Of a stretch of DNA of 64,000 nt, positions 1 to 49,515 are shown piece after piece. The notes beneath the pieces were generated by a model. That model had not been told where the DNA came from and ran no database searches. It saw only the letters and a program-made list of their open reading frames with translations. Made by a program: the position numbers and the translations under genes. Location of the stretch: contig CAWDEM010000008.1 in NCBI GenBank assembly GCA_963801355.1, positions 992,001 through 1,056,000 of the forward strand, written 5' to 3'. The stretch comes from Ignavibacteriota bacterium. GTDB lineage: Bacteria; Bacteroidota; Ignavibacteria; UBA10030; UBA6906. Numbering within the stretch: position 1 is the first letter of the stretch; every line of letters starts with the position of its first letter.

Positions 1-1009
1 AAACATGGCGGTGTACTTCACTTTTGTGAAGCCCGGCGACACGCTGATGGGGATGAACCTCTCGCACGGCGGCCACCTCACACACGGCTCACCGGTGAAC
101 TTCTCCGGCCAGTTCTACCGGTTCGTTCCGTACGGCGTGCGCGCCGACACCGGGATGATTGATTTCAACGAAGTGGAGTCGCTTGCGCTGAAAGAACGCC
201 CCAAAATGATCACCGTGGGCGCAAGCGCATACTCGCGGAACATAGACTATAAGGCATTCCGGGAGATTGCTGACAGGGTGGGGGCTTTTCTCTTTGCCGA
301 TATCGCGCATCCGGCCGGACTGATTGCCAAGAAGCTGTTGAACGATCCCCTGCCCCACTGCCATGTCGTAACATCCACGACGCACAAGACGCTGCGCGGA
401 CCGCGTGGCGGGCTCATCCTTCTCGGTCAGGATTTTGACAACCCCTTCGGCCTGGTCTGGCAGAAATCCGGCCGCACCAAGCGTATGGCCGAGCTGATCG
501 ACTCCACGGTCATCCCGGGCATCCAGGGCGGACCGCTGATGCACGTCATTGCGGGGAAAGCGGTTGCCTTTGGCGAGGCGCTCGCCCCGGCGTTCGAAGT
601 CTACGCACGGCAGGTGATCGCGAACGCCAGGACCCTTGCCGCGGAGCTCGTCGCCTCCGGGTACACCGTAGTTTCGGGCGGAACCGACAACCATCTGATG
701 CTGCTCGATCTGCGCAACCGGAATATCACCGGCAAGGAGGCGCAGGAATCGCTCGACCTGTCGGGCATCACCGTGAACAAGAACGCAGTGCCGTTCGACG
801 ACAAGAGCCCGCTCATCACCAGCGGGATCCGCATCGGCACACCAGCTCTCACAACGCGCGGCATGAAGGAACCTGAAATGAAAATGGTGGCGTCCTTCAT
901 CCACCGGGTCTTAACAAACCCCGGCGACACGCGCGTGCATGCCGCGGTGGCTGCCGAGGTGGAACACCTATGTCTGGAATTTCCTCTCTATCCTTTGCTG
1001 CAGGTGTAG
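1..1009 (+). CDS. glyA: Serine hydroxymethyltransferase (5'-truncated by window edge)
   Basis: [28 protein letters not shown] (PLP lysine), [21 protein letters not shown] motifs; frame open from window start. Confidence 0.98.
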
Positions 1010-1036
1010 TGCGCATCCGGCGGAGTCTGTCGGTCT

Positions 1037-1831
1037 ATGGCTGAATCACCCCACACGGAACCGGAAGTCCAGGAAAACCACGAGATGTCGTTCTTCGACC
1101 ATCTCGAAGAACTCCGTTGGCGGCTCATCAAAGCGATGATCGGCATTGTCCTGGGCATGATCTTCTGCTGGATCTTCATTGATTGGATCATGAACCAGGT
1201 GCTGCTCAAACCGGTCCTTGCCGTCAATGCGGCACTGCCGCCCGGGCAGCCGCCGTTCACCTTGCAGAACCTCAAGCCGTTCGGGCAATTGTTCCTGTAC
1301 ATGCAGGTGGCACTGATCGGCGGTGCGATCATCAGCGTCCCGAACATTCTCTATCAGATCTGGGCGTTCATCGCCCCCGGTCTGCTTCCCAATGAACGGA
1401 AGTACATCCGGGCGATTGTTTTCTTCTCGTCCTTCTGCTTCCTGTCCGGCATCGCATTCGCCTACTTCATCATGTTGCCGGCTGCTCTGAGTTTCTTTTC
1501 GACATTCGGAACCACCGCGATCGAGAACAACATCGCCATCAATGAGTACATGAATTTCGTCATCAGCGTGATGCTGTCCGCGGGCGTCGTGTTTGAACTG
1601 CCCATGGTCTCCTGGTTCCTGTCGAAGCTCGGCATCCTGACGCCCAAGTTCATGCGCCATTACCGCCGTCATGCCATCGTGGCGATCTTTATCCTCTCGG
1701 CGTTTCTGACTCCCGGCACTGATCCCGTCAGCCAGGTGCTGTTGGCCGTCCCCCTGATGGGGCTGTACGAGATCAGCATCCTGGTTTCTGCATGGGCATC
1801 GCGGAAGCGTGAACAATCCCTGGCATCCTAA
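1037..1831 (+). CDS. tatC: Twin-arginine translocase subunit TatC
   Basis: MSFFDHLEELRWRL, YQIWAFIAPGL, FELP, LTPGTD..SQ, LYEISI; multiple TM segments. Confidence 0.97.
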   Translation: MAESPHTEPEVQENHEMSFFDHLEELRWRLIKAMIGIVLGMIFCWIFIDWIMNQVLLKPVLAVNAALPPGQPPFTLQNLKPFGQLFLYMQVALIGGAIISVPNILYQIWAFIAPGLLPNERKYIRAIVFFSSFCFLSGIAFAYFIMLPAALSFFSTFGTTAIENNIAINEYMNFVISVMLSAGVVFELPMVSWFLSKLGILTPKFMRHYRRHAIVAIFILSAFLTPGTDPVSQVLLAVPLMGLYEISILVSAWASRKREQSLAS

Positions 1832-1846
1832 CCAACCGACGGACGT

Positions 1847-2830
1847 GTGAGGCCCGGTGTGACACTGCAAGAAATCGTGCAACCTGTTGAGCAGCACCTC
1901 ACGCTATTCGACCGTCATTTCCGCGAGGCCATCCGATCGCGCATCGGGCTTGTGGACCTGGTGACGCGCTACATCGTCCGCCAGAAGGGCAAACGGGTGC
2001 GCCCCATCCTGGTCCTGCTGAGCGCCGACCTCTGCGGCGGGATCAACGAACGGAGCTACCGCGGCGCAACGCTGGTGGAGATCCTGCATACGGCGACACT
2101 GGTCCATGATGACGTCGTGGACAACTCCGACACACGCCGCGGCCTTGCATCCATCAATGCCATCTGGAAAAACAAGATTGCGGTCCTGATGGGAGACTAC
2201 CTGCTCTCGCGGGGACTCCTTCTGTCGCTGGATCACGATGACTTCGGATTCCTGAAGATCACCTCCCAGGCCGTCCGCAGGATGAGCGAGGGAGAATTGA
2301 ATCAGATCGCCCGTGCGCGAAAGCTCGACATGGACGAGGCGGGGTATCTCAAGGTGATCGGTGACAAGACGGCCTCACTCCTCGCCACCTGTTGTGAGAT
2401 TGGTGCGTCGAGCGCCACTGCCGACCCCGGGCGCCATCGCCTGTTGCGCGACTACGGCGAAGCGGTCGGTATGGCATTCCAGATCCGCGATGATATTCTT
2501 GACTATGTCGGGAGGAAGAGCATCACCGGGAAGCCCACCGGCCTCGATCTGAGCGAAAAGAAGCTCACGCTGCCGCTGATTCACAGTCTCACGGTGGCGC
2601 CGCGGGCGGAGGGGAAGGGTGTTCTCGGGATGATCAGAGACGGGGGGAAGAAGCTCAAGGAGCGCGATGTCGCGGCGTTCGTTACCCGCTACGGGGGGAT
2701 CACCTACGCTCTCACATGCGCACGTGGGTATGCCCGGCATGCCCAGGAACTCATCGCGGAGTTCCCGGATTCGCCGGCGAAAACGTCACTTCATGCATTT
2801 GCGGATTTCGTGATCGAGCGGGACAAGTAG
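1847..2830 (+). CDS. Trans-polyprenyl (octaprenyl-type) diphosphate synthase
   Basis: GKRVRP, LVHDDVVDNSDTRRG (FARM), GDYLL, KTASL, AFQIRDDILD (SARM). Confidence 0.93.
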   Translation: MRPGVTLQEIVQPVEQHLTLFDRHFREAIRSRIGLVDLVTRYIVRQKGKRVRPILVLLSADLCGGINERSYRGATLVEILHTATLVHDDVVDNSDTRRGLASINAIWKNKIAVLMGDYLLSRGLLLSLDHDDFGFLKITSQAVRRMSEGELNQIARARKLDMDEAGYLKVIGDKTASLLATCCEIGASSATADPGRHRLLRDYGEAVGMAFQIRDDILDYVGRKSITGKPTGLDLSEKKLTLPLIHSLTVAPRAEGKGVLGMIRDGGKKLKERDVAAFVTRYGGITYALTCARGYARHAQELIAEFPDSPAKTSLHAFADFVIERDK

Positions 2831-2832
2831 GC

Positions 2833-3405
2833 TCAATAGTCCTGCGGACGCACGGTCAGCACCGGGCAGTGGGCATGACGCACAATACGGTCAGCCGTGC
2901 TCCCGAAGAGCATATGCTCCACTCCGCTGTGGCCGTGCGTCGCGACGACGATCAGGTCGACCTTCCGCTCTTCCGCTTCAGTCAGAATTTCGTGATGCGG
3001 ATTTCCCGTACGCACCGTCGTGGTGGCATCCACCCGGCCGGCGATTTCTTTGTCCACGAGCGCCTGCAACTCTTCCGAACCCTTCTGCCGTAGTTCATCC
3101 TCGACCCCAGGCAGCACGACCTGCCCGAAACCCAGATCGGCCGGGTAGATTGTCGGTTCCACCACGTACACCAGATGGAGCCGCGCGCCGAACTGTACCG
3201 CCATCGGGATCGCATACTTCAGCGCATTCTTGGAATGCACCGAGAAGTCGATGGGGACAAGGATAGACTTGAGGTCGAGCTCGGGTACGGGGGCAGGTTG
3301 AGCTGCCGGTGCGGGCCGCGGACGGAGTTTCTTCGTCGAACGCGCTGCAATGCGCACGCGGAGCGGCTTGGATGGACGTGAAGGCTTACGGGCGGACTTC
3401 TTCAT
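2833..3405 (-). CDS. Universal stress protein with basic N-terminal extension
   Basis: ILVPIDFS, DLIVVATHGHSG, LFGSTADRIVRHAHCPVLTVR. Confidence 0.93.
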   Translation of the reverse strand: MKKSARKPSRPSKPLRVRIAARSTKKLRPRPAPAAQPAPVPELDLKSILVPIDFSVHSKNALKYAIPMAVQFGARLHLVYVVEPTIYPADLGFGQVVLPGVEDELRQKGSEELQALVDKEIAGRVDATTTVRTGNPHHEILTEAEERKVDLIVVATHGHSGVEHMLFGSTADRIVRHAHCPVLTVRPQDY

Positions 3406-33392: not shown

Positions 33393-33458
33393 GGGGTCAG
33401 ACCCGTACCAATTGTCAATGGACTATTGACAATCATCAACCGGTGGGGGTCTGACCCC
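33393..33458. repeat. 66-bp palindromic element, copy 1
   Basis: GGGGTCAGACCC-GTACCAATTGTCAATGGACTATTGACAATCATCAACCGGTG-GGGGTCTGACCCC. Confidence 0.9.
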
Positions 33459-41118: not shown

Positions 41119-43492
41119 ATGCTTCGCGTTCACGTTACAACGACTAGATTTCTCTGCCTCATAGGCATGGCCTGTCAGATCGTCCTTGCGCAGTCATACG
41201 TTCCTGTCCGGGGAGATCCCCGCGTGGCCGTTCAGCCGACGGTGCATTTGGGGGCATATGGATTTGACCTGCGCGACGTGTCCCTTCTGGATGGCAGTCC
41301 ATTCAAAAATGCAATGGAGAAAGACGCAGCCTATCTGCTGCTGATTCAACCTGACCGGCTCCTGCACCGGTTCCATTCGAACGCAGGTCTGCCCACCAAA
41401 GGGGAAGTCTACGGGGGATGGGAGAGCGAAGGGCTCTCGGGACACACCCTGGGCCACTACCTGTCCGCTTGTGCAATGGTGTACGCCGGCACAGGCAATT
41501 CCGAATTCAAGGCCCGCGTTGAATATATCACAAATGAACTTGCCCGATGTCAGGCCGCACGTAAGACCGGCTACGTAGGAGCCATCCCGAATGAAGACAG
41601 CATATTCAGTAAAGTCGCCCGCGGAGAGATTCAGTCATCCGGGTTTGACTTGAACGGCGGATGGTCCCCCTGGTACACCGTGCACAAAATGATGGCGGGA
41701 TTGGTCGACGCCTATCTGTATTGTGGCAATGCGAAAGCACTGACGGTCGTGAAGGGCATGGCGGACTGGACCGGGCATGTCGTTGGTCATCTGACGGATG
41801 AACAGCGGCTCCGCATGCTCAACTGCGAATACGGAGGCATGAATGATGTGCTGGCGAATGTCTATGCCATCACGGGGAACAGGAAATATCTCGCACTATC
41901 GCAGAAGTTCCATGATGAGTTTGTCATGGGCAAACTTGCGCAGCGCATTGATCCCTTGCCGGGGAAGCACTCCAACACGAACGTTCCCAAAGCCATCGGT
42001 GCGGCCCGCCGTTACGAGTTGACGGGGGCTGAGTCGGACAACACCATCGCGTCGTTCTTCTGGGAGGTCATGGTGCACGATCACTAGCTACGTGATTGGA
42101 GGGAACAGCAATTACGAGTATTGTGGCGACCCGAAGAAATTGAACGACAGGCTCAGTGACAATACGTGTGAGACATGCAATACGTACAACATGCTGAAAC
42201 TCACACGTCATTTGTTCTGCTGGAATCCCACGCGCATGTATGCTGACTATTACGAGCGGGCCCTGTATAATCATATACTTGCATCGCAAAATCCCACCGA
42301 CGGCATGATGTGCTATTTCGTGCCTTTGCGCATGGGAGCGCGCAAGACCTTCAGTGATCAGTTCAACACGTTCACCTGCTGCGTCGGCAGCGGGATGGAG
42401 AACCACAGCAAGTATGCCGAAGCCATCTACTACGAAAGTCGGGACAGAGGTCTGTACGTCAATCTGTTCATTCCTTCCGAGCTCCGCTGGAGAAAACGCG
42501 GAGTGACCATTCGGATGGAAACCCGCTTCCCGGATTCCGATACAGTCACGATTTCCATACGCACGAAGAAATCCGTTCGCTTCCCTCTCTACGTCCGGGA
42601 GCCGGAATGGACCGGGAGCAAGATGCGGATTCTCGTCAACGGACACCTCATCGCATCCGCGCCGGATGCGGCAGGCTACCATCGGCTGTCGCCCGCGTGG
42701 CATGACGGCGACCGGATCACGGTTGTACTCCCGATGACAGTGCACACCGAGGGCATGCCCGACAATCCGGATCGCATCGCATTTCTCTCTGGTCCTATCG
42801 TGCTGGCGGCACAACTTGGCACGACAATGCCTGACCCTATTTACGGCACGCCCGTACTAGTCACTGAAGACCGGAGCCCGGCAAACTGGGTGCGGGCGGA
42901 GGCCGGTGCGCCGTTGACGTTTGTGGTGCACGGTGTGGGGAGGCCGTTTGACCCCGTGCTGAAGCCATTCTTCAGAACATACGATCAATACTACAGCGTC
43001 TATTTCGATTTCTTCACCGAACCAGGCTGGCAGGGACGACAGGCGGACTTCGAGGCGGAAAAGAAGAGAGTAGAGGAAATCACGGAGGCAACGATCGACG
43101 AGTTCCGCATAGGTGAAATGCAGCCGGAACGAGACCACAATCTTCAGGCGAACGAGAAGTCGTATGTCGACGCCGCGCTCGGCCGGCCAGGACGCGAGGC
43201 ACGCAGAGACAACCATTTCTCGTTCGATATGAAAGTGCAGCCGGGAGCGCGAAATTCTCTTCTTCTGACGTACATTGGCGACGACAATGACAGGAAGTTC
43301 GACATTTGCATTGACGGAGAGCTGCTTGCCACAGTTGAATGGACGGGTGGTAAGCCGGGGAGGTTTTACGATGTAGAGTATCCGCTTCCCGACTCCCTCA
43401 TTGCAGGCAAAACAAAGACAAGAGTACGGATTGAAGCGAACCATGGTAAGACGGCCGGGCGAATCTTCGGGTGCCGAACGTTGAGGAGGTAG
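41119..43492 (+). CDS. GH127/GH146 beta-L-arabinofuranosidase family; one frameshift at ~42085
   Basis: [36 protein letters not shown] | [37 protein letters not shown]. Confidence 0.9.
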
Positions 43493-43572
43493 AAAGGATT
43501 CAGGTCCCGGACAATCGTGGTCCGTCAACACACGAGGCACTCCCGCTTCCACACAAATCCGGAGAACCACTC

Positions 43573-44563
<991 letters not shown>

Positions 44564-44588
44564 GATTTCTTGCAGTCTTCTTCAGGTT

Positions 44589-45368
44589 CTATACTTCTTC
44601 TTCCGACGGCTCCTTGCCGTGCCGAAGAGTCTCCAGCTCGCGACGCAGGGGCGCCCAGTATACGCGGTCGACTTCCCGCTCCCGATGCTCTTCCTGTTCC
44701 AGGCCTGCTTGAATCCCCTGCTCATCCTGATTCCGTGCGGCCGCGAGCAAAGGCCGCACTCTGACGACCGATTCCAGCTTTTCGGGATGGGAACGCGCCA
44801 TGTCGATGAGCATGGAAGGCGTGCGCGACTCACGGAGCCAGAATTCCAGATCCGCATCCGACGTCGTCTCGTGTGCCACGTAATCAGCCTCTACGAGCCG
44901 GCGGATCATCGGCCAGTCCTTGTCACGCTGTGTCTTCTTTGAGCGGATGAGGTCCTGCAGTGAAATCAACTCATACTGCTGTCCGTCATCGTCAGCAAAT
45001 TGAGTCCGGCGCTCCCAGAGCATGTCAAATCGATCAACGCCTCTCATGACCGACATGATGTCGATTCGCATGTTCAACGCATCGGGGTGATGGCACCGGA
45101 AATGAATTGCGTGCCCGCGGAGGAGAAACTGCCGATCAAAGGGAGGCATGGCGATCCTGCGTGCCTGGAGTTCGCGAAGTGCGGCGCGCAGAAGTGCGAG
45201 GTTGTCGTCCGTAGCAAGAATGGTGAGGTCGGTATCGCGGCTGAATTCAGCGGCCCCGTAGAACACGCAGGCCTGGCCGCCTATGAGCAGGGCGCGTACC
45301 TTGTGCGCGGACAGCGTCGAAAGGACTTTCTGAATCGGGTTCCGGATCGAGGGAGCCTCCCACGGCAA
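44589..45368 (-). CDS. Pol-beta-superfamily nucleotidyltransferase (toxin-antitoxin-like)
   Basis: LLIGGQA...YG..EFSRD.DL, R.DIM, DLI.SKKTQR.KD; start codon uncertain (TTG 45368). Confidence 0.75.
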   Translation of the reverse strand: MPWEAPSIRNPIQKVLSTLSAHKVRALLIGGQACVFYGAAEFSRDTDLTILATDDNLALLRAALRELQARRIAMPPFDRQFLLRGHAIHFRCHHPDALNMRIDIMSVMRGVDRFDMLWERRTQFADDDGQQYELISLQDLIRSKKTQRDKDWPMIRRLVEADYVAHETTSDADLEFWLRESRTPSMLIDMARSHPEKLESVVRVRPLLAAARNQDEQGIQAGLEQEEHREREVDRVYWAPLRRELETLRHGKEPSEEEV

Positions 45369-45468
45369 GATAGAAGGACCAGAGTTTGCCGGTTTCCCGC
45401 CAGCGCTGCGCCGGCGTCATCCGGTACCAATCCATCCATTCGTCATCGGGTATGGATGCTGTATACAT
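45247..45468 (-). CDS. Small partner protein overlapping the nucleotidyltransferase
   Basis: W..WY.MTP..RW.E..KLW..YL..GGSLDPEPDS.SPF; promoter directly upstream. Confidence 0.65.
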   Translation of the reverse strand: MYTASIPDDEWMDWYRMTPAQRWRETGKLWSFYLAVGGSLDPEPDSESPFDAVRAQGTRPAHRRPGLRVLRGR

Positions 45469-45474
45469 GTGCCA

Positions 45475-45503
45475 AATATATCAACTCCCAGCGACGGAAG
45501 CAA
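45475..45503 (-). promoter_or_regulatory. Sigma70-type promoter giving a probably leaderless transcript
   Basis: TTGCTT-N17-TATATT with only 6 nt before ATG 45468. Confidence 0.6.
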
Positions 45504-45552
45504 ATGAGGGCAATTTGTTGCTCTTTCATGGGGAAACAGGCGGCTGCCAATT

Positions 45553-46167
45553 TCACACTATGCGGTGGGAAGAAAACGCCTTGAGCAGCGTGGATTTGGT
45601 TTTTCTTACCGCCGCCACATCGGACAGCAGCACGACTTCGACTTTGCAGCTTTTGGCAAAATGGATGGCTGGTATGAAATCCGCATCGGAGGTCGCGAGC
45701 AAAATGCGTTCGATCCTTTGCCCAATCGAAAGCTTGGCCACGTCGAGACCTATCTTCATATCCACCTGTTTCTGGGACAGGACCGGTTCAAAGTCTTCGT
45801 CTGAAAGACGACCTGGTGTTTTCATGAGTCTCTTCACCGACGATTCTTTCAGGCTCCATCCGTCGAACGAGAGATGCCCGCGGCGGTAGACAAAGAATGG
45901 GTTCTCCATGAGGGATTGCTGAAACTCGATTGCCCGGGCATGAACGCTTGTGGTTGTGAAGTCCTGTAGCTTTCGTGAGACTGGCAGCGTCTTCTTTTCA
46001 GCGAATGGAGGGCAGTCGTAGAAATGGGTCTTGAGCAGAATCTCGCCGGGTTTCAGAACTGATGTGCAGAACTTCTCAATCTCCGGGACTGAAGGGAAGT
46101 GACCTATCCTACGCTGCAGGAGCCGTCGCGTGAAATCACCGTCCAGCAGAATCGCGGTATCCATCAA
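45553..46167 (-). CDS. NYN domain (LabA/DUF88, PIN-like) nuclease
   Basis: AILLDGDF, FYDCPP, QKQVDMKIGLD, SDADF.PA; AGGAGG RBS (TTG 46167 or ATG 46164). Confidence 0.9.
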   Translation of the reverse strand: MMDTAILLDGDFTRRLLQRRIGHFPSVPEIEKFCTSVLKPGEILLKTHFYDCPPFAEKKTLPVSRKLQDFTTTSVHARAIEFQQSLMENPFFVYRRGHLSFDGWSLKESSVKRLMKTPGRLSDEDFEPVLSQKQVDMKIGLDVAKLSIGQRIERILLATSDADFIPAIHFAKSCKVEVVLLSDVAAVRKTKSTLLKAFSSHRIV

Positions 46168-46175
46168 GCCTCCTC

Positions 46176-46217
46176 AAAAAAAAGTGAACCCCCTGCACGA
46201 AGGGGTACAAGGGGTTC
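46176..46217 (-). terminator. Intrinsic terminator immediately upstream of the NYN gene RBS
   Basis: 13-bp stem GAACCCCTTGTAC/GTGCAGGGGGTTC (2 G-U pairs), 6-nt loop, then AC-T8. Confidence 0.85.
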
Positions 46218-46250
46218 TATGCCGGCCTACCGGCGTTGCGGATTTGAAGC
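46176..46250 (-). ncRNA. Candidate ~75-nt leader/antitoxin RNA
   Basis: Bounded by promoter and terminator; contains GCCGG-TAGG-CCGGC hairpin then terminator hairpin; function inferred only. Confidence 0.45.
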
Positions 46251-46256
46251 ATCAAT

Positions 46257-46285
46257 AAGATACGGCAGACGGCGGCTATTGTCAA
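46257..46285 (-). promoter_or_regulatory. Sigma70-type promoter for leader RNA/NYN
   Basis: TTGACA-N17-TATCTT. Confidence 0.75.
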
Positions 46286-46397
46286 GCGGAATTCAAGGCC
46301 GAATGGGCTAAGCCGAGTGGGCTGAGGCCGACTGGGCAGAGTCCTAAGCGGTGACATTTCTATCGAGTCAGAACAGGGCCTCCTGGGCACAATATCG

Positions 46398-46462
46398 AGG
46401 ATCAGACCCGCACCAATAGTCAATAGACTATTCACAATCACCAATGGGTTGGGTCTGACCCC
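46398..46462. repeat. Palindromic element, copy 2
   Basis: AGGATCAGACCCGCACCAATAGTCAATAGACTATTCACAATCACCAATGGGTTGGGTCTGACCCC; 6 bp from stop at 46469. Confidence 0.88.
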
Positions 46463-46468
46463 AACCGA

Positions 46469-49315
46469 TCATCTCAAAAGCAAGAGTCTACGCGTCTGCA
46501 CAAAACCGTCTCGCGAGCCTCCCGAAGGACTCCCGACGGTCATCCTGTAGAAGTACACACCGGTAGAAAGTCCAGCAGCATTGAACACCACCTCGTAGCT
46601 CCCCGGTGCTTTCGGTTCGTCCACAAGCACGGTCACTTCCCGACCCAACAGATCGTAGACGGCCAGCCTGATCCAGCTAGACGACGGCCCCCTGGGGCCA
46701 GACCCCGTATTCGCACCCGGTTCCCCACCCGCCGCACCCGAGACCCGATACCCTATTCTTGTACTCGGATTGAATGGGTTTGGATAGTTCTGCTCGAGAA
46801 CGTATTCTTTGGGCAGCTGCAGGGATTGGTCAGAGGATACCTCCGTTGTCAATTCCAAATAGAAGTCGATGTTCGGCGTCGTTCCTCCGGCGACCACCAC
46901 CGCCTGGGCACTCGCGGGCACAAGAGGCATCGGCACCTGCATGACACTGTCCGGATGGACATCCAGCCCCGAATACCACTGGGTGACATACCGGTTCGAG
47001 TTCGCACGCAGCGACACTGCGAGCACATGGTACGTGCCCGGCCAAAGGCCCTTCAGACGGTAAGCACCGGAGAAAGACCCGGCAGAACTCGTGTACGCTC
47101 CCACGGCAGCGGGATGCCCTTGCTCATTGAAGGCATAGATCATAAACACCCCTGAGGTCATCGGTTTTCCCGTTCCGCGATCGAACACTGTCCCCGATAC
47201 TGCACCTGTCGTCCGTTCCATCACGAGATCGTTCAATTTGAGAGAGGTGCTCCCGGTCAGCGGCACACTCTTTGCCCCGGAGTCGGCGAAACTCCGTCCG
47301 TGTTCATAGTAGCAGATAGCGAGACTGTCGTCCAACACTGTGGAATTCGTCTGGGCGCTAAACGCCGCGATCTTGTAGGTCCGTGGAAGGACCGTTGTCT
47401 GATATCCACCGACAAAGGAAGTGTTCCGATAGGCGGCGTACTCCCCGTTCTCCGTATACAACATCACATCGATGATGTGGTCGGATTCGGTCAGGCGTCC
47501 GCCATTCTTGTCCGTCACAAAACCACCCACAGTGGCACTATACTCCAGGGTGAAATCGACGCCCAACACCGCTGCAGGCGCGGTTACGCTGACTATTGCC
47601 GCGCTCTGAACCGAAGGTTTTCCATTGTACCATTCAGAAGCATAGTCCGTGCCGGAATAGGAACAGAAAACTATATACGGAGCTGTGGGCAGCCCTCCCA
47701 GTGTATACGTCCCACCACTGACCCCCTTTCCCATAATCCTCTTCCCTTGCGCATCGCAGGCATACACCGTTGCACCACTGCTCAGTGGAGCGCCGGTTGG
47801 CGTCAGCACATTGCCAGTAATTGTTCCTCCCCGAGCGAGCGTGATATTGACATTCTTCGTCGTATCGGGAGGGCGAACCTCCACGAATGTCGCATGGTCA
47901 AAATCATCCGCACCATTGTACCACTTGTCGATTGCATGCGGACCGGAATATGAGTATGACTTGACAGAAGAGGCGATGACCTTATATCGACCGGCCGGAA
48001 GCCGGCCGATGCAATAGTCACCGTTTCCTGCGGTCAGGGCCCCCATGATGGAATTCTGCCACTCATCGTACACAGCAACGGTAATCCCAGCCGGCCAAAG
48101 TGGGTAGACTATCCTACCCGCTATGGCGCCGGCGCGGTGGAGCGTGACGGTAATCTTTGTTGTCTCAGGTGCCACGACGTCAATAGGCGTAGCATTCGCT
48201 TCTGTGTTGGTTCCATCGTACCATCCATCGGCGTAGTTGAGGGCGCCATGGTATGAATACGACACGTAGTATCTACCAGTCGCCAGCTTCGGGACGAAGA
48301 AAGTGCCGTCCGGACTATTCATCACGAAACCCAGTCCACTTCCCTCGGCATCACTCACTTCGATCTGGCACGCCTGTTCGGTAAGAATCCCTCCCCCCTC
48401 AGCAATCACCGTCCCACTGATCCCGCCGCCCGGCAGGAGATAGAAATCTTTTGTCTTCGAAGTCTCCGGTTCGACTACATGGATGAGGTCGGCCGCATCA
48501 AAACTTCCTGCCCCGGAGTACCATTGCGTCGTGAAGTTGACGCTGTCGTCGCTCGATGCCTCCAGCTTGTAATCTCCGGTCGGGAGGCCGATAATGGCGT
48601 ATTTCCCGGAGGAATCAGTGACATCCATGTTCAATGAGTTGTTCTGGCTGTCGTAGGCAATCACGTAGCATTCCGCAAGCGGCACAGTGTCCACGGAAAA
48701 CACCCTTCCGGAAATCGCCCCGCCATATTGATGGAGGATGAAATTGACGCCTGTGGTTTGTTGTCCATCCGTTACATGCACGAGCGCAGCATTATGCCAG
48801 TCGATCACGCCGTTGTAGTACTCCTCGAGGTAGGGAGACCGCGGAAGCAGCCTCAAATAGTAATCGCCGGTCGCCAGGGCCTTGACCTCATACGCTCCGG
48901 TCCCGTCGTAAGCCACTGACCCGTAGCCACAGTACTTCCCGAACTCGTTATATGCCCAGACCGAGGCGAATCCCGTTGTCGGCGTCACGCCGTCACTCTC
49001 GAGAACCTTCCCTGCAATTGAGCCGGTTCCGGCGACGGCTTGAAAGGATCGCAGGTAAATATCGATTTCGCTGTCGGTCTTTCCTTGCGCCTGGAGCCGT
49101 GCAATCGCTTCGGAGCATGCGTTGATCCTGTGCAGCGGGTCCTGGCTCGCGGACCTGGTCTTCTGGCTTTCCTGAACAGATCCGCCCGGGCAGGGAGGAA
49201 CCATCATTCTGACAAATGGTACCATTCCCTGCTCATCCTGCGCCTTCGTGTAGCGAAGGGGACAGAACGCGAGTGCGACGATGATAGGGAGAACGAGGAT
49301 CGAGTACTTGTGCAT
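46469..49315 (-). CDS. Surface protein with tandem carboxypeptidase-regulatory-like (Cna-B/SdrD-like) repeats and T9SS CTD
   Basis: ~7 repeats of G.ISG.V...G.Y....L..G.Y...WY.G; QNYPNPFNPST; GGAGG RBS. Confidence 0.87.
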   Translation of the reverse strand: MHKYSILVLPIIVALAFCPLRYTKAQDEQGMVPFVRMMVPPCPGGSVQESQKTRSASQDPLHRINACSEAIARLQAQGKTDSEIDIYLRSFQAVAGTGSIAGKVLESDGVTPTTGFASVWAYNEFGKYCGYGSVAYDGTGAYEVKALATGDYYLRLLPRSPYLEEYYNGVIDWHNAALVHVTDGQQTTGVNFILHQYGGAISGRVFSVDTVPLAECYVIAYDSQNNSLNMDVTDSSGKYAIIGLPTGDYKLEASSDDSVNFTTQWYSGAGSFDAADLIHVVEPETSKTKDFYLLPGGGISGTVIAEGGGILTEQACQIEVSDAEGSGLGFVMNSPDGTFFVPKLATGRYYVSYSYHGALNYADGWYDGTNTEANATPIDVVAPETTKITVTLHRAGAIAGRIVYPLWPAGITVAVYDEWQNSIMGALTAGNGDYCIGRLPAGRYKVIASSVKSYSYSGPHAIDKWYNGADDFDHATFVEVRPPDTTKNVNITLARGGTITGNVLTPTGAPLSSGATVYACDAQGKRIMGKGVSGGTYTLGGLPTAPYIVFCSYSGTDYASEWYNGKPSVQSAAIVSVTAPAAVLGVDFTLEYSATVGGFVTDKNGGRLTESDHIIDVMLYTENGEYAAYRNTSFVGGYQTTVLPRTYKIAAFSAQTNSTVLDDSLAICYYEHGRSFADSGAKSVPLTGSTSLKLNDLVMERTTGAVSGTVFDRGTGKPMTSGVFMIYAFNEQGHPAAVGAYTSSAGSFSGAYRLKGLWPGTYHVLAVSLRANSNRYVTQWYSGLDVHPDSVMQVPMPLVPASAQAVVVAGGTTPNIDFYLELTTEVSSDQSLQLPKEYVLEQNYPNPFNPSTRIGYRVSGAAGGEPGANTGSGPRGPSSSWIRLAVYDLLGREVTVLVDEPKAPGSYEVVFNAAGLSTGVYFYRMTVGSPSGGSRDGFVQTRRLLLLR

Positions 49316-49387: not shown

Positions 49388-49460
49388 GGGTCAGACCCGA
49401 ACCAATTGAGAATTGTCAATCGACTATCGACGATCGATCAATCGGTCGGGGTCTGACCCC
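49388..49460. repeat. Palindromic element, copy 3 (one extra heptamer)
   Basis: GGGTCAGACCCGAACCAATTGAGAATTGTCAATCGACTATCGACGATCGATCAATCGGTCGGGGTCTGACCCC. Confidence 0.88.
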
Positions 49461-49515
49461 AATTCGCATATGAGTGTCCACAACCGAGGCAAAAAAGTCG
49501 GAACTCACTCTTGCT

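Follow-up and report, generated by a model that had tools for sequence, protein, structure and literature searches.

We describe here a small structured RNA encoded together with a nuclease of the NYN (LabA/DUF88-like) family in a 64,000-nucleotide stretch of an Ignavibacteriota bacterium genome (positions 992,001 to 1,056,000 of contig CAWDEM010000008.1, hereafter the window). The RNA unit lies between its own promoter and the ribosome-binding site (RBS) of the nuclease gene, ends in an intrinsic terminator, and occurs beside NYN homologs (~25-91% identical) at 48 further distinct loci in at least six phyla. The RNA-NYN module is real and apparently undescribed, and a full-text literature search returned no paper joining the NYN domain with type III toxin-antitoxin systems. 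Rather than a generic leader, the RNA is probably the NYN protein's dedicated partner. That it acts as an antitoxin for an NYN toxin, in a type III-like toxin-antitoxin or abortive-infection module, is the reading that we favour, at a little short of an even chance, because of the evidence for RNA-NYN pairing and of the analogy to the AbiFCd/RCd22 system.

All features of the locus (45553-46285) are read on the minus strand of the window. Transcription would start from a sigma-70-type promoter (46257-46285) composed of a -35 box TTGACA (46285-46280), a 17-nt spacer and a -10 box TATCTT (46262-46257). This promoter matches 10 of 12 consensus positions and is the sole promoter-like site in 44000-47000, where shuffled sequences average 1.5 sites. 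The predicted RNA is about 75 nt long (46176-46250); we place its start ~7 nt past the -10 box and its end at the end of the U-run, so that both ends are predictions. It contains a single-stranded AAAUCCG element (46239-46245), in which AUCC is invariant and the next G nearly so, a CAAC spacer (46235-46238), and a first hairpin (hairpin 1, 46221-46234) made of GCCGG (46234-46230), a UAGG loop (46229-46226) and CCGGC (46225-46221). Hairpin 2 is the intrinsic terminator (46176-46217): its two arms, GAACCCCTTGTAC (46217-46205) and GTGCAGGGGGTTC (46198-46186), form 13 pairs, seven of them G-C, around the 6-nt loop CCCTTC, and the structure is closed by AC and eight T (46183-46176). The RBS GAGGAGG (46169-46175) directly follows the U-run, 4 nt ahead of the ATG (46164) of the intact 203-aa NYN gene (45553-46164; Pfam PF01936), and purine-rich RBS-like sites occupy the equivalent position in homolog loci. 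A preliminary description of this DNA, made from its letters, had already pointed out the promoter, a short unit of ~75 nt with a GCCGG-UAGG-CCGGC hairpin and a strong 13-bp terminator with a U8 tail abutting the RBS of an intact NYN gene; each of these elements is present, and the order of promoter, short structured RNA, terminator and RNase gene is kept with NYN across phyla. The 97-nt leader folds as exactly two hairpins (-39.1 kcal/mol, z = -3.06), and none of 200 shuffles folded as well. The locus is not a chance arrangement, since the RNA unit recurs beside NYN homologs in 48 other distinct sequences, which is a stronger argument than the fold.

The 136-nt leader occurs once in the genome of the window, and Tandem Repeats Finder (TRF) detected no tandem repeats in the RNA leader. 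The sole TRF arrays consist of approximately three tandem copies of a 14-15-nt unit (consensus AGGCCGAATGGGCTG, plus strand) at 46296-46341, directly upstream of the -35 box. At the position of this array, a 91%-identical locus (L007) carries a different 12-nt duplication (GCTCGGGGGTCT, twice). The repeat may represent an operator, an UP-like element or the scar of an insertion.

Loci around NYN homologs were taken from genome and metagenome collections and from relatives of the genome of the window. All 24 loci of close homologs (NYN 49-91% identical) showed a CTTGACA -35 box, a TAnnnT -10 box, the AAUCCG element, the UAGG hairpin, a terminator and an RBS. A looser pattern recovered the hairpin also upstream of NYN homologs only 35-42% identical, from Planctomycetota, Actinomycetota, Deinococcota, Pseudomonadota and one Melainabacteria metagenome-assembled genome (MAG). 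By record title and tree label, the carriers are Ignavibacteriota/Bacteroidota, Planctomycetota, Actinomycetota, Deinococcota, Pseudomonadota and Melainabacteria, and the Deinococcota include the cultivated Meiothermus taiwanensis (DSM 14542) and Deinococcus phoenicis.

The 48 distinct sequences were aligned with the window (alignment A2, 49 sequences), leaving out three regular-expression matches judged to be false (L041/L132 and L151). In this alignment, A10, T11, C12 and C13 and the whole UAGG loop are invariant, and G14 is conserved in at least 90% of the sequences. In hairpin 1, compensatory changes are seen at four of the five stem pairs, where GC gives way to AU, CG or UA, with one G-U besides. 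Covariation as high as this was not obtained in any of 500 column shuffles, and sliding the register gave no comparable signal. The G-U pair, found in locus L141, fits an RNA and not a DNA palindrome. Because the regular expression demanded a paired stem, the figure of 100% pairing in A2 is built in. This caveat is offset by the behaviour of a covariance model built from A2 (R1), which found no intermediate class of scores: all 50 matches of at least 34.4 bits, over 84 and 70 sources, were known members, and the next best scored 19.2, 18.7 and 16.7 bits. R1 gives 44.4 bits at the window hairpin, and the matches just below the known members include two correctly placed variants with a UGGG loop (L103 and L114). 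RNAalifold, run on 21 members of the window's clade, recovered both hairpins, with compensatory changes in 8 of 18 pairs, seven of them in the terminator hairpin. Rfam 15, searched over 44000-48000 with E up to 10, gave no family, save three chance-level matches to eukaryotic families.

The RNA also exists as a unit separate from the NYN leader, which is the observation most telling for the mechanism. In locus L116, the NYN gene (138-755, plus strand) begins 2 nt after another open reading frame (ORF) and has no leader; on the opposite strand, downstream of NYN and convergent to it, lie a TTGACA-17-TATATT promoter, the sequence AAAUCCG-UUAA-GCCUG-UAGG-CAGGC and, adjoining the stop codon of NYN, a terminator. 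The stem of this unit contains a U-A pair that was seen in no other sequence. In locus L015, NYN and the RNA unit are transcribed divergently, the unit from a promoter of its own and into the 3' end of a convergent gene. Moreover, units may be duplicated: nine of ten IMG/VR loci with a GCCAG variant of the stem (several with identical flanks) carry two tandem AAUCCG-NN-stem-UAGG-stem units followed by a terminator and NYN, and locus L181 likewise has two tandem units before a terminator and an NYN homolog. The second units, whose stems differ (GCAGA/UCUGC, GCCGA/UCGGC, ACCCA/UGGGU), were read from the sequence and are left unscored by R1. The NYN homologs behind these tandem phage and prophage units are 25-33% identical. 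Gene-less and duplicated units argue against a leader that works in cis only, and both are predicted for a partner RNA that binds a protein.

RNA and NYN also occur in the same genomes. Among 61 relatives (including the genome of the window, G000), NYN was found in five, one of them with a 24-aa remnant, and strong R1 matches (at least 40 bits) in six, namely the same five and G031. In a sample of Thermaceae, the RNA was found in 2 of 68 genomes and NYN in the same two. All five genomes taken from other phyla contained exactly one RNA copy, beside NYN, and wherever the RNA was strongly found there was one copy per genome. None of the seven NYN-matching genomes among the relatives and the Thermaceae lacked the RNA. 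The two genes appear to form a rare, accessory and mobile pair, given that NYN occurs in 5 of 61 relatives, that its neighbours are not conserved and that restriction-modification (R-M) domains lie directly beside the cassette in 6 of 30 loci. The latter count comes from a scan of the flanks in 30 of the 31 motif loci that were long enough, covering the 71 of 139 ORFs nearest to NYN. The six loci, several of which are close kin (L019, L102 and L118 from Actinomycetota; L104, L032 and L131), encode HsdS-type specificity subunits, an N6/N4 methylase with an Mrr-like domain, a ResIII helicase and an RE endonuclease domain; at another locus (L130), an IS1 transposase adjoins the cassette. In two Deinococcota loci (L024 and L033), the upstream gene encodes a ribonucleotide reductase with HNH or LAGLIDADG homing-endonuclease domains, perhaps inteins, and DUF433 or XisI genes lie downstream of the cassette.

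Decay of the module was seen in three genomes. In G001, the RNA unit looks intact and NYN diverges or is truncated after ~22 aa; in G077, a TAG codon and at least two frameshifts disrupt NYN, and the promoter and both hairpins are intact. This asymmetry, observed in few cases and in MAGs, agrees with a dispensable toxin and an indispensable antitoxin. G031 retains a decayed remnant of the RNA unit: its promoter is mutated, the T-run is missing, and an NYN gene of the window's subfamily is absent. A different NYN-type gene with a CxxC segment (L167, G031:C3, ~507-1190, minus strand) lies ~330 nt downstream of this remnant, and a hairpin with eight T immediately precedes its RBS.

The protein partner matches Pfam NYN (PF01936) with 25.9 bits (cut-off 24.2; E = 1.6e-5). 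A word-seeded search returned 65 homologs, mostly of ~203 aa, most of which carry a precomputed PF01936 match; those with a name are called LabA/DUF88 or NYN. In an alignment of 29 homologs, D8, D135, D160 and D162 are invariant, and we take these residues, by the motifs of NYN proteins, to be those of the active site. No meaningful relative was found in the Protein Data Bank by sequence alone. An AlphaFold model computed from the same alignment (mean predicted local distance difference test, pLDDT, 93.6) has as its closest folds the LabA-like protein 2qip (E = 2.8e-6) and the NYN domains of MARF1 (6fdl and 5yaa), at a sequence identity of just 7-11%. The window protein thus resembles LabA/DUF88-type NYN proteins in its fold and conserved acidic residues. 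PADLOC returned a weak match to its 'NYN' model (E = 0.0015, 15.9 bits). As modelled, the window protein is an intact NYN-fold nuclease, and the conserved aspartates suggest that it would be catalytically active. We know of no partner RNA for the LabA/DUF88-type NYN family, and literature searches joining NYN with RNA-motif, antitoxin-RNA or phage-defence terms returned none.

The terminator reaches further across the family than hairpin 1. A strict test for a hairpin followed by a T-run, applied to the 100 nt upstream of each NYN start, was positive for 74 of 131 distinct loci; of 393 random control windows drawn from these loci, 14 were positive. The stem ends at a median of 21 nt before the start codon, and among loci with hairpin 1 the count is 36 of 41. 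A terminator placed between the promoter and the ORF characterises this family. In a FastTree phylogeny of 138 NYN proteins, the hairpin-1 motif was present in 43, absent in 93 and undetermined in two; it occurs in all 19 members of the window's clade, and at least ten changes are needed over the tree. Clades lacking hairpin 1 have other leaders, again ending in a terminator-like hairpin. We rejected the idea that AUCCG marks NYN leaders in general: of the 90 loci that lack hairpin 1, 19 have ATCCG upstream, 13 on the antisense strand and 18 within the ORF, and only the longer ATCCGA is somewhat enriched (10 upstream, 2 antisense, 3 in the ORF). Some leaders of distant homologs are built differently: in two Aquificota loci (L058 and L059) the leader has three copies of CAAUCCGA(A/G), and in two Planctomycetota loci (L074 and L081) it has two tandem ~37-nt hairpins with a T-run after the second.

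The closest known arrangement is that of AbiFCd and its RNA RCd22, a type III-like system encoded by the phi027 prophage of Clostridioides difficile. According to PMC12373285, the locus consists of a SigA promoter, an RNA of ~100 nt, a Rho-independent terminator, an RBS and the toxin gene, with no internal promoter. The short RNA, which has two copies of its motif, is described there as the dominant transcript; read-through yields the toxin mRNA, and RCd22 neutralises the toxin in cis as well as in trans by direct binding. The window has the same order of promoter, non-coding RNA, terminator, RBS and gene, and the two-motif RNA resembles the phage-borne NYN loci with two units. The components differ. 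The AbiF toxin is Abi_2/HEPN-like and its RNA is the abiF motif (RF03085), whereas the window protein has the NYN fold and its RNA belongs to no Rfam family; neither the abiF motif nor an Abi_2 toxin was matched at the window, where Pfam gave NYN only. Toxicity and binding were shown for AbiF/RCd22, whereas the window module is known from its sequence.

A second comparison is with orphan RNAs. The motifs DUF3800-I to -XI, drum and skipping-rope are presented by Weinberg et al. 2017 (PMC5737381) as highly conserved orphan RNAs with Rho-independent terminators at the 3' end, those linked to DUF3800 being tied to one protein family, in either orientation, and having no known function; DUF3800 itself has been described as RNase H2-like (PMC7736814). 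By the features given in PMC5737381, the NYN RNA belongs with them: it is conserved and structured, has a terminator at its 3' end and accompanies a single protein family, whichever way the two are oriented. The grouping is descriptive and not one of homology; the partner protein and the RNA structure differ. NYN, DUF88 and LabA go unmentioned in the main text of PMC5737381 and in those of two later motif surveys (PMC11109978, PMC8632094).

From these comparisons and the pairing evidence, the following mechanism may be proposed. The strong promoter would produce a ~75-nt RNA with the AAUCCG element, the UAGG hairpin and the intrinsic terminator. Most transcripts would be expected to end at the terminator and to release free RNA, and those that read through would provide the RBS and the gene for a putative metal-dependent RNase of NYN fold with intact catalytic aspartates. 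Through its AAUCCG element and UAGG hairpin, the RNA would be recognised by the NYN protein, which it would keep inactive; NYN itself would be a toxin, possibly directed against phages. The module would thus work like ToxIN or AbiF/RCd22, with another toxin fold and another, mostly single-copy RNA.

Several observations weigh against the RNA being an antitoxin of this kind. Classical type III antitoxins are tandem repeats of ~34-45 nt that the toxin cuts into units. The classical systems (ToxIN, AbiQ/antiQ, CptIN, TenpIN) share with the window the order of promoter, RNA, terminator and nuclease gene, and they are compact, mobile and found on prophages, as NYN modules likewise occur in phage and prophage contigs. 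Unlike their antitoxin arrays, however, the RNA of the window is a single unit without a repeat, and the NYN fold is unrelated to ToxN/AbiQ, as Pfam gives NYN only and the fold search returned NYN proteins. The module is outside the classical type III families, because the toxin fold differs and the window has no repeat array. Hairpin 1 is present in just 43 of the 136 scorable family members, other clades having different leaders. The independent units number just two of ~50 loci, one being a metagenome contig of 1.2 kb and the other a MAG contig of 5.9 kb, and the broken NYN genes, being found in MAGs, may be assembly errors. The neighbourhoods of homologs are mostly unrelated housekeeping genes, and 24 of 30 loci have no adjacent R-M domain. 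The preliminary description had read the flanks, another toxin-antitoxin-like pair and a palindromic element, as consistent with a defence islet, which is not supported: PADLOC found nothing in the two ORFs downstream, among them the 259-aa gene, the nearby palindrome is a dispersed repeat, and the flanks are a surface protein with a type IX secretion system (T9SS) tail and an aldo/keto reductase. The window neighbours, as far as their sequences tell, give no defence context.

A further point of this kind comes from phages. The exact GCCGG pattern was found in nine IMG/VR contigs, some of which may be chance matches, since a reversed-pattern control gave three; two of the viral loci (L180 and L182) reach just ~22 bits with R1. 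Eight of the nine contigs have no NYN gene at all, including two records rated ~100% complete, and in these contigs something other than an NYN encoded in cis may read the motif. Locus L178 has the motif and a terminator followed by a convergent helix-turn-helix gene, with no gene behind the unit. In three loci, the Rfam DUF3800-VII RNA (62-64 bits) lies on the same strand upstream of the motif, at 238 nt in L178, 402 nt in L182 and 27 nt in L184; it adjoins the motif without overlapping it, and the other Rfam matches in viral loci are tRNAs. No DUF3800 protein is encoded in five related phage records. Because several of these Firmicutes-type contigs, with an NYN-type hairpin downstream of a DUF3800-VII RNA, encode neither nuclease, the NYN-less motifs might possibly be decoy RNAs directed against host NYN systems. 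Such decoys would be comparable to the pseudo-ToxI of phage PhiTE. It is doubtful, and in our estimation quite improbable, that NYN and its AUCCG/UAGG RNA belong to a hidden, broad class of non-repeat type III-like modules, comprising the RNase H-like DUF3800 with its eleven motifs as well, in which each nuclease would be restrained by its own terminator-ended small RNA and against which phages carry such RNA-only decoys. Two viral loci have other neighbours: in the IMG/VR contig L183, a TROVE (Ro60-like) gene (2510-3022) lies ~1 kb downstream of the motif, and a 200-kb provirus (L177) has at least seven tRNA genes arrayed ahead of the motif.

Other roles for the RNA have to be considered. The RNA could be a cofactor that forms a stable ribonucleoprotein with NYN and on which NYN depends for activity or targeting; it might, for example, consist of a handle and a short, variable 5' substrate selector, with the terminator only setting the stoichiometry. 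The same pairing evidence (co-occurrence, independent units and tandem units) fits such a cofactor; the handle is invariant, in contrast to the segment 5' of AUCCG and to the linker, which vary, and the orphan terminator-ended DUF3800 RNAs (PMC5737381) would be analogous. We nevertheless hold this to be unlikely: the variable 5' segment is short (~5-20 nt) and nearly absent in L015, the RNA-only phage copies have no obvious cofactor use, and the retention of the RNA where NYN is broken fits an antitoxin better. To a similar degree, we judge it unlikely that the RNA is purely a cis-acting leader, either an attenuator relieved by a factor (NYN, a host protein or a ligand) that binds AUCCG and the UAGG hairpin, or a site at which NYN degrades its own mRNA. 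Here the intact units of L116 and L015, with their own promoter and terminator, no ORF downstream and an orientation opposite to NYN, are hard to accommodate, as are the gene-less motif of L178 and the tandem units of phage loci. Inspection by eye, without a systematic search, revealed no conserved antiterminator pairing. A leader function would nevertheless account for the position of the unit, which sits in the 5' leader, its terminator reaching up to the RBS, in ~47 of 49 distinct examples, and for the invariant single-stranded and loop nucleotides, which resemble a binding site; RCd22 acts in cis too (PMC12373285).

It is most improbable that the conserved inverted repeat acts at the DNA level, as the operator of a repressor or otherwise, with the hairpin having no function as RNA. 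GCCGG-N4-CCGGC is indeed a near-palindrome situated just downstream of a promoter, yet its invariant parts are asymmetric (AUCCG on one side, and the UAGG loop), its arms co-vary to four other pair types with a G-U (G:T) pair in L141, its orientation between its own promoter and terminator is fixed even in rearranged loci, and no regulator gene is conserved nearby. Two pairings within the leader were also considered and rejected: a pseudoknot between AUCC and the UAGG loop, which by reasoning are complementary only in parallel orientation, and an antiterminator formed by AAUCC and the 3' half of the terminator, which has five pairs in the window and, by eye, is not conserved in other clades.

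NYN/LabA-like proteins are very widespread, those of bacteria being largely uncharacterised, and a conserved partner RNA would be the first concrete handle on the role of one large subfamily. Should the RNA prove to be an antitoxin, type III-like systems would gain a new nuclease fold and single-unit, non-repetitive RNAs that are invisible to repeat-based searches. A role would then suggest itself for the long-standing orphan RNAs of the DUF3800, drum and skipping-rope kind, which end in terminators and are tied to nuclease genes, as would the existence of RNA decoys in phages; true decoys would amount to an RNA anti-defence island. As the motif is short and sharply defined and occurs in cultivated strains, the hypothesis is directly testable.

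The genes around the locus in the window do not recur beside its homologs, where only scattered matches were seen (a T9SS tail in L089 and L098, an aldo/keto reductase in L096 and L044). The upstream gene encodes a 948-aa CarboxypepD_reg protein with a T9SS sorting tail. Downstream of NYN, on the minus strand, a 259-aa gene and a 73-aa ORF occupy 44589-45468, the 73-aa ORF (45247-45468) overlapping the start of the 259-aa gene by ~120 nt. The 259-aa protein belongs to a very large uncharacterised family (more than 7000 matches, a few with PF19502), the homologs of which are typically 247-259 aa long. We rejected the idea that the 73-aa ORF is a frameshifted N-terminus of this gene, as it has no similarity to the N-terminal part of a longer homolog. 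The aldo/keto reductase, two genes downstream of NYN (43471-44415, plus strand), has an odd tail, and an overlapping 63-aa ORF in another frame (44372-44563) resembles the usual C-terminus of these enzymes; the tail may be due to a frameshift or a sequencing error. The palindromic element lies right after the upstream gene (46385-46480) and occurs again at ~49388-49462 and 33394-33458. This hairpin element is repeated at dispersed sites, with 12 genomic matches (75-100% identity), including a cluster of four that overlap, and looks like a repetitive extragenic palindromic (REP) sequence or a miniature inverted-repeat transposable element (MITE) that is not specific to the locus.

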